From: Candidatus Heimdallarchaeota archaeon
GTDB taxonomy: Archaea > Asgardarchaeota > Heimdallarchaeia > Heimdallarchaeales > Heimdallarchaeaceae
DNA: 64,000 nt
NCBI GenBank assembly: GCA_030603365.1
Contig: JAUVXV010000001.1
Coordinates: 32,001-96,000, forward strand
Direction of reading: 5' to 3'
Position numbers and translations under genes: made by a program. This document shows positions 33,101 through 49,206 of this stretch, piece by piece; position 1 is the stretch's first letter; the number at the start of each line of letters is the position of its first letter. A model generated the notes under the pieces. It was given only the letters and a program-made list of their open reading frames with translations. It was not told where the DNA came from and made no database searches.

Positions 33101-33742
33101 TTACTGTTTCTTAGCTTCGAGTATGGCTTTTACTCTCTTTAATCTAGAAAAAGTTTCACGCTCTTGTTCTTCAAGAGTACTTGCAATGAAGTTTGCAGTT
33201 GCTCTAAGTTTTGGTATTAATATGTAGTTCAGAGCATTAACTCTTCTTTTAGTTTTATTAATCTCAGATGCAAGTTTTTCGAGTAACGTCATTTTTTCTG
33301 CAATGATCATTAATGTTTTCAGAGATTTTCTAAAATAGACTATTGCTCGATCTAATTGTGCACTAGAACTAGTTAAACCGTAAAAAATTTCTTCTTCCTT
33401 TTGGGTTTCCTCTACCACAAACTTTGGTGATTTAACTCCCATAATACTTACAGAGTGAGTTTTTATTTCAAGTACTGAAGGTGCATATTGGGCTAAATCG
33501 CGTATCTTATCAGGGCCAAGAGCCATCTCTCCCTTTGCCAAGGATTGATATGCAATTTTCAGCTCTTTTTCCACTTGCATTCTTGCCTCACGAACTTCAT
33601 CTTTGATGGCATACAATTCAATAACAAGACAATCCATTTTTTCTTTAAGCAGATCATGACCTTTTTGAGCTAGTCGAATCCTAGCTCTGGTATTTAGGAG
33701 TTCCATTCTTGTAGCATTAACAACATTAGAATCAAAGGACAT
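33101..33742 (-). CDS. atpD: A/V-type ATP synthase subunit D (5' end apparently island-derived)
   Basis: [39 protein letters not shown]. Confidence 0.96.
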   Translation of the reverse strand: [213 protein letters not shown]

Positions 33743-33931
33743 TGATTCAGTTGTAAGTAAAGTTATTAAAAGTTTTATTATACAATTATAATAATTGTTA
33801 ACTCAACTAAGATTGGTTACATTTTTGGGTAAGATATTCTGAGGAGGGTGGTTTTACAATCTGTAATTTCAGTTTTATGATATCTTATAACATATTATTT
33901 ATATGCGTTTATTTTATTAAACAAAATCGAA

Positions 33932-34618
33932 ATGAAAAGTGGGAAGATTTCATTTAAATTGGGGTTTTTATTAATAATAGCTCTAGTTTTTTCTCTATTC
34001 TTTATTAATTTATTTTGGTCAATCATTCCTATTTTCCAATATCGGAAAAATGCTATAATTTTAATTATAGGTGATTATGGTCCTTTTAACGATTCTAATT
34101 ATGATGATGATTTTCTGTCTGAAAAATACAGGGAATATTGGGGAGTAAGAGCTGAAGAACTCAAGAAATTCACTAATTGGGAAGTATATTATTGTTATGA
34201 AAAGACATTTAATTTTCAATTAAGTTATTTTAAAAATCTTCTAGTTATTATTGAAGGTCATGGAAGTGTATCAAATTACTATAACAGTCATTATATCAAA
34301 ATTAATGAGCAAAAAAGGATCTATGCTAGTGAATTTAAAATTCAATGCAATAATCTTACTCTTGTTATTGATTCTTGCTTTAGTTATAATTGGTATTCTG
34401 ATTTTAGTCATAAAAATCTAAATTATTTATTCACAAGTGATTTAAGTAACAATGTTTCATGGAGTCGTTATCAATATCTCCCAGAACCATATGACAATTT
34501 GATAATCCAGAGATACAACCGTTTCTTCCTAGATGCTTTTCTTAAGGATTATTCATATCAGAAAGCAAATGAAACAGCTTGGATTAATATGACTCAGTTT
34601 AATCTTATGAATTATTAA
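33932..34618 (+). CDS. Membrane-anchored caspase-like (clan CD) protein
   Basis: N-terminal TM; VIIEGHG and LVIDSCFS dyad motifs. Confidence 0.65.
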   Translation: MKSGKISFKLGFLLIIALVFSLFFINLFWSIIPIFQYRKNAIILIIGDYGPFNDSNYDDDFLSEKYREYWGVRAEELKKFTNWEVYYCYEKTFNFQLSYFKNLLVIIEGHGSVSNYYNSHYIKINEQKRIYASEFKIQCNNLTLVIDSCFSYNWYSDFSHKNLNYLFTSDLSNNVSWSRYQYLPEPYDNLIIQRYNRFFLDAFLKDYSYQKANETAWINMTQFNLMNY

Positions 34619-34760
34619 CAAAAAAGTTGTCCTCTCTCAAGAGAGATTATTTGAAGAATCATCAAGAATACCAGAATACAAGACCAATCAGTAACATCAA
34701 CCCCAATCAATGGAGAAGAAGTTAACCATGTGATCCATACTTTCTCTAAATAGTACCTAT

Positions 34761-48100: not shown

Positions 48101-48982
48101 CCTGAAAACATGCTCAAACTCTTTGCCATCCCTTACGAATTTTTAAGTGCCCTTACACGTCTTAAAGATTGGAAATATCCTGAACTATCTTTTATTACTC
48201 TAATAAGTGGTGCAGGAAATAGGCAAGCTGCGCTTGTTAACCAACGTTTAGTATCAATGTATGGAAATATACTATATGACAATCAACATAAAATAACAAA
48301 AAAACTAGATAAAACTATCATTGATAACTTGCTTCAAGCAATATCAATTGTTAAGAATCACTATACTGATTACAAGCAAATTAGCTTGAAGGGTGGTCTT
48401 AGAGGAGATGTATTGAGAAAAGAAATCTATTCAAAGAAAATTGAAGATTCTTTTGAAATTGTTGCAGCTTTAGAACATTTAGTAAATTTTGATTACCTAT
48501 ACAAATCACAGCTAACAATAGGAGAACAAATAGAGGATTTAGGTGGAAAGAATCATTTAATTCTCAGAGAACCTCTTAAATTCAAAAGTTTTGTAGTCTA
48601 TTGTCAAAATATTGGTATTCTACGTAGGAATATAAAGGGAACTTACAACTATAAAATAATCTCTGAAAATAAAGTAAATGCTCCATTTTCTCTGAGTAAC
48701 CAACAAACAACAATAGGACACATATTCAATTGCAGAATCCTTACTCCAGCAGGAATAATAGATAAAAATGGGAATTTTACTAATGAAATACAAAAAACAC
48801 TTGTATTTGATGCTTTACAAGATTCTTCTAGAAAGTTATCAAAAGCTCTTAAATTCGCTGAATTGGTAAGAAATGGTGAAAATACTGCGGATGCTCATAG
48901 AAAAATCTACAGAGACGATGATTATTTTATTTCAAAAAACAATTCAATTGAGAAAATTATGCTTTGGACTAATTTAGTCTGA
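42176..48982 (+). CDS. Giant (2268 aa) multi-pass membrane protein of unknown function
   Basis: Signal peptide, ~540-aa beta-rich ectodomain, several TM helices, wHTH-like segment, ~1400-aa soluble C-terminal region. Confidence 0.85.
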   Translation: MKKCRIGISVILLFTSLILLNYTSSLTHSDHFEQNNPPFFSFPDIYIDYNSTYYKQQISCNLQLELHEFNCLTVLFTTSGDKTNNEGIRIVFTFGEIEVSFLIERLFQDHLGHNLTQFFSYPESFSGEMDVLITVEAQTSLWYESGSIRIFSYSNVERIEPAIVTEYGSSFPVVPNWLRFMGSSSSSEIRTVTTVFNNSENFDNVNLTLSFQANDFTAYKQHFELYVNDQLRSTREFRENQLTTESFMLAVDSGINYLTIDFVVEICIGEIQFSKINLSGKGIDFEDFLPENTYTCFKWERNEFDHTFDLSPLKPIVSYSEQILEMEMDYGYHSAVATSINYEINIGEKSLDSGEIIADGQAPSPLTISVKSPLIHSDDALVFRIQGIAEEPGIFYLLNSSYVSIEPLPELQEQGSLERVLVENESYSTPSSEPLILIFKDYCEVTPDYLHCNISLSFSLLNEFGSAVRQIDVLMKVDLLTVIDTQISYEKQVNINEQQIFYSNLYEVTVILSIYGDGFAVILNDLKYKFSEYLNDTSSPNPFDIPKYQDSNPLSPVKSTILYIEYGCLLLFFVIIFSQGLLRRKEKGRTVQENEEEERELTRFKRIVRFPKKWWLKAKESFFRVWLLPTSICYLGLKAETLGRIAEEFVTIANSYNLNLIHPDLGKWGFYSFIICVLVSSFVTLSALFLSLTSTFYKDLFLVSQLLGIVIFIIYIPSSILLLLYLSSNGYMVEIFKVVVLLCLFLSIIVFLKYLRKTENEQRKEIVKFFFKNKESEITDTTSNLTVNRTVGEDLSQEQYNDYKQKLLNYIIYKITPEIQVSANRFAERFHISLELAHNLLIAISNDHSGLGEYFIEEQIYKRSSTNEMSSLYLDIRSQKKHGELISKYNKNNVNSEKTPHNNVDNENQTPKKIPISSSFDDFYYYNKRLSTLNWLTTPILTDYFRYKLKIRTSKLDFKKYANVFFNNRGDVKIDDVDDYMDFFLHFSNSLTRNLSYSKYKEFFQVLGLKEEWISVVDLIKKHKLDDKFAFQIARYYLKIYELKMKDTNILKGECSFAEVIYSIFKYLWLANLYLENVKNIADGWKKWENIRYTFRTIFGVIELPFLGNIKAVPIINTSSKNDNRIYQDGIFCFNSSSSDKPPFLTIDTKQLALTYNAINLRLKDEKSLESFYNTRSGTDLITPSSLVSFKDRSSSMMSPSHLFNTVCELKSQNIGQLFIFGTLGDIPVYIDNKKVDFLNLSYQLYSGNESYKEIKERIENKIFPHIHHLMDEHGIFQKIKQVPSDAESTVYRTVNDFKRMWLSLDLLSMAFDHAMIKSIGVNLENNFLNTQIFANYQEIGERSTINRPARLRNKVPILPNFYPEVDVRIIQKVLESEKLISPETIVDFGFYTSHSFESITNIQLIVYGLSKHKKKELRFLTLTDLMKKYALIERNLPKNEQNRKLLLLNYETDSNLSEIHKCKIGNERFVIIIENKDSINYTQKIEPISNLLVYDENQSDFVFSNTNTIISPKSFWNPVFHKNKYYLTLRGEDLVPHTKVLRFSGREILPGWIDLSKGILPCWNYEKEQNNIPSETIIKHHRKTMFEFLLTRYLPIIEAQTKIVDDKIKYEAAIAHYPVDIAISKLKALKEYIIGAYKDTKLSKEQISELEHNKEKTRVIYQLLYEIDSLPFTSTSEFDVDILLSKISETIQYYDDLYRYSPNLELFVNYFDKTEKIPVQYRNKVIKDSNNVPYPKPLQVTHYFTTASKTSRRYSQNLLKIYTNQDVKRNKYGKTHLAGYIADNNFYKTNENGTKLYRVNGRKYVPNQLIHNPLDSIQLILFRYRLSMRDANEFYSKYNLGEGDILSLVTTRRNKEDQTHIKELSMKTFDIINQHAKQTDHILSNGIRTVYNDMLTLYSTLDLSLQKVIQSTNIKLAEEIWKFLSEKQYSRKSLQFDFAENSIMMLKKNKLLKGLLSSDMLNIIPISKHLQPNNPENMLKLFAIPYEFLSALTRLKDWKYPELSFITLISGAGNRQAALVNQRLVSMYGNILYDNQHKITKKLDKTIIDNLLQAISIVKNHYTDYKQISLKGGLRGDVLRKEIYSKKIEDSFEIVAALEHLVNFDYLYKSQLTIGEQIEDLGGKNHLILREPLKFKSFVVYCQNIGILRRNIKGTYNYKIISENKVNAPFSLSNQQTTIGHIFNCRILTPAGIIDKNGNFTNEIQKTLVFDALQDSSRKLSKALKFAELVRNGENTADAHRKIYRDDDYFISKNNSIEKIMLWTNLV

Positions 48983-49086
48983 TTATTGAATCTTTTTTTC
49001 GGTTTTATTCTCAAAATCTATCTTTATTATAATGAGTTCAATGGTTTTACCCTCTCTATTGCATAATTATGTCACTTTATGATATG

Positions 49087-49206
49087 TCAACACATCATTT
49101 TCTCTTTAAGGAGATCATGACCCTTCTGTGCTAAACGGATTTTAGCTCTAGTGGTTAGTAGTTCCATCCTTGTTGCACTAATAGTTCCAAATTCAGGAGT
49201 TGCCAT
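49087..49206 (-). pseudogene. atpD: Displaced 5' fragment of atpD (39 aa)
   Basis: [39 protein letters not shown]; 25/27 aa identical to residues 10-36 of AtpD at 33742. Confidence 0.93.

Follow-up and report, generated by a model that had tools for sequence, protein, structure and literature searches.

An island in the ATP synthase gene atpD of a heimdallarchaeon replaces the promoter and about the first 40 codons: a probable homing-endonuclease-type element

Several kinds of mobile element that enter conserved genes have been described. In fungal mitochondria, mobile open reading frame (ORF) elements, or mORFs, have brought a foreign C-terminus together with an endonuclease into atp6 of Allomyces macrogynus and into atp6, atp9, cox2, and nad3 of Glomus (PMC3630166). 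Replacement of a 5' end plus promoter has been shown for the dusA integrative and mobilizable elements (IMEs), with IMEVchUSA3, and stated for SXT at prfC (PMC8409611); these elements integrate by means of a tyrosine integrase at an att core and excise precisely. The free-standing homing endonucleases of T4-like phages target conserved genes by intronless homing, with co-conversion of the flanks and microhomology joining on one side (PMC2988022). The aloposons of Candidatus (Ca.) Heimdallarchaeum combine tandem genes for 3,000-6,000-aa proteins with a MinD/ParA module and tRNA sites (PMC8813620). Here, we describe an island that splits atpD, a gene of the ATP synthase, in a 64,000-nucleotide window of a Ca. 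Heimdallarchaeota genome (G000; labels of the form GNNN denote the other genomes in the comparison set), and we compare it with these systems.

The complete atpD ORF (33101-33742, minus strand) encodes a 213-aa protein, ATP synthase subunit D (Pfam ATP-synt_D, E=1e-54). Part of its 5' end recurs on the far side of the island as an 86-nt repeat with 80% identity (33635-33720 versus 49096-49181). This is far beyond chance, since blastn against the whole genome gave E=1e-13. An initial annotation of the sequence had placed the second copy in a short ORF at 49087-49206 on the minus strand, and we reproduced the coordinates of both ORFs as well as its exact counts: two amino acid differences over 27 shared codons and 16 differences in 81 nucleotides, 12 of them in synonymous codons. 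The TATA-like boxes that it reported upstream of each start were found as well, both at -29, within the genome-wide peak for such boxes (-29 to -32 in 2252 ORFs); at both starts the box is preceded by an A-rich tract. This atpD is the only close subunit D gene for the main A-type ATPase; the atpA/atpB genes of that enzyme are 9 kb distant, at 20998-24250. The other D gene of G000, on contig C13, is only about 27% identical and belongs to its own V/A-ATPase operon; at this identity, the idea that the stranded fragment is a piece of the second atpD paralogue was rejected. That operon (C13:253532-262460) is a second, divergent ATPase of the V/A type.

The relatives used for comparison were Ca. 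Heimdallarchaeota metagenome-assembled genomes, and the family includes two closed Heimdallarchaeum genomes. At 25 genome loci and 14 metagenome loci, csl4 directly adjoins an intact atpD with no island between them. Such an empty locus had been predicted, with a gene reading through to KEKMDCL; the locus exists, whereas the reading does not, as the empty sites run from their ten-residue start to KEKMDAL. Intact atpD within the genus begins with the same ten residues as the stranded fragment, and in amino acid sequence the fragment is 95-97% identical to the starts of intact atpD in the closest relatives, which likewise lie beside csl4. It is also 90% identical in nucleotide sequence to G023, the closest empty-site relative, and retains the host-type promoter. 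These features bear out the proposal that the copy at 49206 is the original start of the host gene. The alignment of the closest relative to the window ends at 49096 and picks up at 33720, and the gene order of the relatives continues collinearly on both flanks.

Two more atpD sites are independently occupied, one in G001 and the other on a short contig assigned to G010. In G001, one contig carries the replaced atpD start; on another, csl4 is followed by a host fragment, then by an insert of 1.1 kb, and then by a further fragment, this one of island type. The contig binned in G010 also has a replaced start; it is probably mis-binned, because G010 has an empty site as well and the 3' part of the contig groups with a different clade. 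Over the first 33 codons, the three replaced genes cluster together (support 92/93, a rough value from a short alignment), whereas codons 55 onward take three separate placements, each with the respective host. The promoters of four island-type starts are homologous to each other and unlike the host type. This conflict between the 5' and 3' trees upholds the view that the island brings its own start and promoter, and confirms, at the level of sequence comparison, a chimeric atpD in which the promoter and codons 1 to about 40 are island-type and the rest is host-type. The gene would then be transcribed from the island promoter.

At the junctions, the break lies deeper in the complete gene than position 33635, where it had been placed: informative sites are island-type through codon 40 in the replaced genes (about 33623 in the window). 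Island DNA thus extends at least 9 nt beyond the break, and the stranded fragment ends after Met37, so that about 9 host bases (codons 38-40) are present at neither junction and 6-9 bases are missing or altered at both. Where empty sites read Asp-Ala-Leu, each of the three replaced genes has Asp-Cys-Leu, with TGT CTT. Cysteine occupies this position in only 3 of 77 homologues, namely two of the replaced genes and G022. The latter has a host start beside csl4 yet keeps TGT CTT, and we read it as the likely scar of an island lost through recombination between the duplicates. The 15-mer AAR ATG GAY GCN YTN remains whole in 31 of 39 distinct alleles, but is disrupted in every junction copy, in the scar, and in one Ser variant; the recoded hexamer is presumed to mark the center of the target site. 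Crossovers vary, since the stacked fragment of G001, with an island promoter and first nine residues followed by host-type codons 10-34, switches near codon 10, not 40.

These junctions do not fit the attB/attP crossover that had been postulated at a shared CATTTT, given the incorrect prediction of the empty site, the lack of a common core, the missing or altered host bases at both junctions, the variable crossovers, and the lack of an integrase. Neither an identical att core nor a conservative crossover was found at the atpD junctions. None of the island ORFs had a Pfam, NCBIfam, or PHROGs match to an integrase, recombinase, or transposase, the genome matches to PF00589, PF07508, and PF00239 all lie outside the island, and PF00589 was not found in the island carriers G001, G010, and G025, whose genomes are incomplete. 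A Tn7-like transposon was also considered and rejected, with no transposase match, no inverted repeat joining the ends, and target bases lost rather than duplicated; the left junction resembles a Tn7-like end, for which there was no matching second end.

The island belongs to a family. Its largest ORF encodes a protein of 2268 aa, hereafter the giant, and relatives of its N-terminus occur in 28 of 30 Heimdallarchaeaceae genomes; no homologue was found in 30 other genomes searched, and none in viral contigs. Duplicated gene ends lie beside family islands at atpD, ppdK, aspS, RLI/ABCE1, a hydantoinase gene, glmS, 16S rRNA, and tRNA. The duplicated ends are 3' for aspS (G001, G004, G007, G020, and G022), RLI/ABCE1 (G009, G010, G012, and G018), and ppdK (G000 itself and G016), and 5' for the hydantoinase gene hyuB in G025; G012 has extra glmS ends, and other islands have duplicated 3' ends of 16S rRNA and of tRNA. 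At RLI and aspS, just as at atpD, both copies show changes in a short stretch of host sequence at the junction: the working copy is recoded from Pro-Ala to Gly-Cys in RLI and from Ala-Pro to Ser-Val or Ser-Cys in aspS, and the dead copy is scrambled in each case. RLI scars occur in G000 and G013. In G000 (C1:209509-209781; L148), RLI/ABCE1 has no island but carries island-type codons, MGCL for FPAI, and is a probable scar.

Some further islands extend this picture. The second family island of G000, at the 3' end of ppdK, spans C8:81197-90273 and C1:1-3432 (L123 and L124); about 120 bp are shared between the end of C8 and the start of C1, and the ppdK island thereby links the two contigs. Two further ppdK 3' copies lie on G016:C188 (L260). 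Giant islands are found at the 16S rRNA 3' end at L132, L133, and L139 (G013:C12, G017:C6, and G022:C198), and in two of them the duplicated ends include the anti-Shine-Dalgarno region. The one-gene cassette of 1.1 kb behind the stranded atpD start of G001 (L064:528-1603) is 88% identical to L208:795-1872, which lies beside the stranded aspS end in G022. The first 100 bases of the same G001 locus, at the end of contig C10 (L064:1-100), are abruptly GC-rich and look like a chimeric contig end. Other inserts were seen downstream of atpD in G012 (L047; about 2.5 kb in size) and between the proline-rich gene and rpiA in G004 (L056; about 1 kb).

We compared the last 450 residues of 23 giants with their target genes. 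Each of the 16 pairs with similar C-termini has a target in common; of the 17 same-target pairs, 16 are similar at the C-terminus and one is dissimilar. Within G000, the giants at atpD and ppdK have 75% identity at the N-terminus and unrelated C-termini. As a pattern rather than a statistical test, these comparisons suggest that the C-terminus tracks the target gene and that the N-terminus does not. The window giant has a layout of a hydrophobic N-terminus, an ectodomain of about 550 aa, and membrane helices at about 560-750, followed by the target-specific C-terminal region. As a possible target, rpl10e was set aside: no 5' fragment was found in genomes with a giant beside it, and the label stands for adjacency only.

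The tails of several giants resemble nucleases. The G016 giant (L076:349-3348, on G016:C167), 55% identical to the window giant over residues 270-885 of the latter, has a C-terminal LAGLIDADG_2 domain (E=1.8e-19, above the Pfam cut-off) and lies 21 bp behind a ppdK end. Giants of the glmS class have two weak LAGLIDADG-like motifs behind AbrB/MazE-like repeats, and the tails of the 16S, ppdK, aspS, and tRNA classes contain D...E-x-K motifs, which we take to be typical of PD-(D/E)XK enzymes. A PD-(D/E)XK-like motif was also noticed by eye in the atpD-class tail near residues 1178-1192, where Gly, Asp, and Lys are invariant. From these motifs and domains, the tails look nuclease-like, and the window giant is a candidate mobility endonuclease. 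Among 31 genomes, a close match to the atpD tail (66% identity) was found only in G001, which also has a split atpD. A search of 5.8 billion entries with the tail returned only the self-match, and a profile search returned 6 proteins that, by length or sequence, appear to be known family members. Tyrosine-recombinase motifs were considered for the tail and rejected, as an Arg and a Glu are invariant but His and Tyr are not.

Taken together, we consider it likely that a homing-endonuclease-type element inserted in a conserved gene, replaced the displaced gene end, and recoded the cut site. This reading is supported by the empty and the independently occupied atpD sites, the tree conflict, and the lack of an att core and an integrase, and likewise by the same architecture at RLI, aspS, ppdK, hyuB, 16S, and tRNA ends. 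The altered junction stretches at atpD, RLI, and aspS, the pairing of tails with targets, and the LAGLIDADG domain or motifs of the G016 giant and the glmS class also speak for it. The island carries a long-diverged version of the atpD promoter and of roughly the first 40 codons, which has been maintained by selection on the protein and is recoded around Asp37-Leu39. The C-terminal region of the giant would cut a naive atpD at or near the Met-Asp-Ala codons. The downstream broken end would then be repaired by host homologous recombination on the island copy of atpD, with co-conversion of the recoded bases, and the upstream end would be joined at little or no homology or via the fragment stranded in the donor. 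Among phage elements, homing on one side, with co-conversion and with microhomology at the junctions, has been documented (PMC2988022). As an outcome, the host start would be stranded and neither junction copy would keep an intact site; recoding may confer immunity to further cleavage. Recombination between the duplicated segments can remove the island and leave recoded scars, the end products of which we see for atpD in G022 and for RLI in G000 and G013. An occupied site can also be invaded again, as the two stacked fragments of G001 show. One N-terminal membrane module is fused to different C-terminal domains, each type correlating with one target; as a guess, the membrane module might tie the nuclease to cell-cell contacts where chromosomes are exchanged.

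A number of observations weigh against this interpretation. In the atpD tail, where the nuclease motif was a visual call, the Glu of E-x-K is replaced by Ser in both G000 and G001, and the domain may be a variant or an inactive nuclease. This tail had no match in Pfam, NCBIfam, PADLOC, PHROG, or Atlas; two AlphaFold models of it were uninformative (predicted local distance difference test scores, pLDDT, of 41-42), Foldseek with the smaller tail model gave no match, and ten excerpts around the motif had no meaningful match in Pfam. Nor would one expect a homing endonuclease to have a signal peptide and membrane helices. In G001, the matching tail lies on a contig that is unjoined to the atpD contig, several target labels were assigned from adjacency alone, and the 16 pairs are not independent, as relatives may share one old insertion. 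Two unrelated tails occur at ppdK, and no recognizable giant was found in the aspS island of G020 or in the small RLI island of G012. The former island contains a 1205-aa orphan ORF (L207:9709-13326, on G020:C4) that ends next to the stranded aspS end and is unrelated to the giants by tblastn.

Three other explanations were considered. The first is site-specific recombination in the style of dusA or prfC; the recombinase would act in trans or reside unrecognized in the tail, the overlap would be mismatched, and the left junction would have eroded later. The end product matches that of dusA IMEs (PMC8409611), one tyrosine recombinase gene lies elsewhere in G000, two host fragments break off at an identical Met codon, the tails of some fragments, read in register, are similar to the lost codons, and exact duplications of 51 nt and 40 nt are present at the hyuB and tRNA islands. 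We nevertheless regard such recombination as unlikely. An identical core is lacking at atpD, RLI, and aspS, and neither junction keeps the host hexamer. The stacked G001 fragment changes type near codon 10 rather than 40, the targets are unrelated and number at least eight, the tail alignment shows no conserved His-x-x-Arg or Tyr, and PF00589 had no match in three (incomplete) carrier genomes. The recoding of junctions, at an amino acid cost in three different genes, is not explained by passive, homology-facilitated recombination on captured gene ends, in which no element-encoded enzyme would take part and the giant would be cargo (a receptor or polymorphic effector) with a tail that tracks its site by descent. 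Variable crossovers and scars are consistent with host recombination, the layout of the giant is receptor-like, and some islands have no giant. This account leaves unexplained the clustering of breaks at one spot and the LAGLIDADG domains at the tail next to the replaced end, and the atpD tail is 66% identical across two host clades compared with 47-50% for the G001 N-terminal pieces that match the G000 giant; we judge it improbable.

An assembly chimera, or a mis-joining of strains, is very improbable. Exact-protein look-ups found no second assembly with an identical protein, and contamination is 3.4%, yet the contig measures 701 kb, the gene order of the relatives runs on at both flanks, and the same architecture, recoded bases, and promoter type recur in independently assembled genomes.

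Compared with described systems, the homing-type island proposed here is closest in its workings to mORFs. Both show insertion in a conserved gene, a foreign and diverged gene end joined in frame, a displaced native end, a hybrid gene, and element-free alleles in relatives; ATP-synthase genes are among the targets of both, and the island would rely, as mORFs do, on an endonuclease rather than an integrase. The island differs in residing in an archaeal chromosome, in replacing the 5' end and promoter rather than the C-terminus, in its size (15 kb with cargo versus about 1 kb), and in placing the candidate nuclease domain behind a membrane module of about 900 aa, on which different nuclease folds are swapped. 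A recognized endonuclease family, LAGLIDADG_2, is present in sister islands, whereas the atpD island has the motif with Glu changed to Ser and no profile or fold match. We therefore propose an analogy with mORFs, in which the nuclease is a candidate, rather than membership.

With the dusA and SXT/R391 prfC elements, the island shares, at the sequence level, the supply of a promoter and of a diverged N-terminus, which in DusA is of comparable length at 35 residues (PMC8409611, PMC2791158). In contrast to them, it has no integrase that we found and no core, its target bases are lost, and its excision leaves scars. The initial annotation knew of no 5'-plus-promoter replacement in an archaeal ATP synthase gene; such replacement is in itself known from dusA and prfC (PMC8409611), and endonuclease-driven replacement of ATP-synthase gene ends is known from fungal mitochondria (PMC3630166). 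What the window contributes is the combination of an ATP-synthase target with a membrane-anchored, tail-swapping giant. The endonucleases of T4-like phages, unlike the island, bring no replacement gene end, are small soluble proteins, and leave split genes that express two polypeptides. Aloposons share the host family and a giant gene with the integration site downstream, but the island has a single giant, a protein-coding target, and no ParA-like match among its ORFs. Tandem giants, a tRNA site, and an upstream MinD/ParA module are all lacking, the only match being a weak one (E=4e-5) to a 5237-aa ORF in G025, and the published features exclude the island as an aloposon. We found no description of such islands in the Asgard mobile-element papers PMC8813620 and PMC11529989, which cover part of the literature.

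The remaining genes of the island, listed in Table 1, are accessory in character. The nearest clusters of the 395-aa protein are bacterial, and its gene, the PD-(D/E)XK-like ORF, and the kinase gene form a three-gene candidate defense cassette. The second TFIIB-like ORF has a copy with 86% identity in the ppdK island of G000, and paralogues of these ORFs lie at C8:35063 and C1:2628-3341. The ORFs at 34761-35180 and 38239-39768 are diverged copies of genes elsewhere in the genome (C3:102082 and the TFIIB-like C8:34958, respectively), which suggests that the island has captured host genes. The subtilase gene and its 225-aa neighbor recur beside giants or split genes in G013, G017, G009, G012, and G018. 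A small island in G000 (C1:334429-337091) has genes of the subtilase and 225-aa families and no giant, and is possibly a decayed family member. Outside the island, the window encodes at 31945-32928 a conserved membrane-anchored proline-rich protein whose last 35 residues are near-invariant across the genus.

Table 1. Coordinates of the split atpD gene, the island, and flanking features in the window
Feature	Position	Strand	Remarks
Host-derived remainder of atpD	33101..33622	-	Codons 55+ group with G020/G023/G016 (97/93)
Island-supplied 5' coding end of atpD	33623..33742	-	Codons 1 to ~40; new 9-residue N-terminus, Ala38 to Cys
Inserted island, ~15.5 kb	33623..49095		Lower boundary between ~33623 and 33596 (informative sites)
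Recoded hexamer TGT CTT replacing host GCN YTN	33626..33631	-	15-mer comparison
Island-supplied promoter	33743..33792	-	TATA-like box at -29 (33765-33771)
Two accessory ORFs	33932..35180		Homologue of the 139-aa one adjoins the replaced atpD start in G001
Cargo: PD-(D/E)XK-like ORF, Hanks-type kinase, 395-aa protein	35557..38264	+	Lower GC
Two TFIIB-like (cyclin-fold) ORFs	38239..39768	+	NCBIfam TFIIB, E=4e-7
Subtilase (S8) gene and 225-aa membrane-protein gene	40074..42008	+	Pfam Peptidase_S8, E=1e-16
Giant ORF, 2268 aa	42176..48982	+	Ends 105 bp from the stranded fragment
Stranded original atpD 5' end	49087..49206	-	39 aa: host codons 1-37, two island-derived codons, stop
Original host atpD promoter	49207..49256	-	TATA-like box at -29 (49229-49235); kept upstream of intact atpD in relatives
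csl4 (exosome subunit), host flank	49392..49994	+	Pfam ECR1_N and EXOSC1; adjoins intact atpD in relatives

A broader proposal, which we put forward tentatively and would not yet back over its alternatives, is that these islands constitute an undescribed modular homing system. A membrane-anchored module would be combined with interchangeable site-specific endonucleases of unrelated folds (LAGLIDADG and PD-(D/E)XK-like), each going with a recoded spare end of the gene that it targets; the anchor might act where DNA passes between cells, and the system could be a main route of gene gain in the integrase-poor Heimdallarchaeaceae.

The homing reading would mean that close archaeal relatives of eukaryotes can take up 10-15 kb of accessory DNA inside essential genes, with no need of an integrase and without being killed. 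In the window, the gene for the ATP-synthase rotor would have been placed under the promoter of a mobile element. Core genes and gene ends such as those of atpD, RLI, aspS, ppdK, and 16S are left mosaic even after island loss, which can disturb phylogenies based on them. Finally, the pairs of tails and recoded sites provide enzyme-substrate predictions for new site-specific nucleases.

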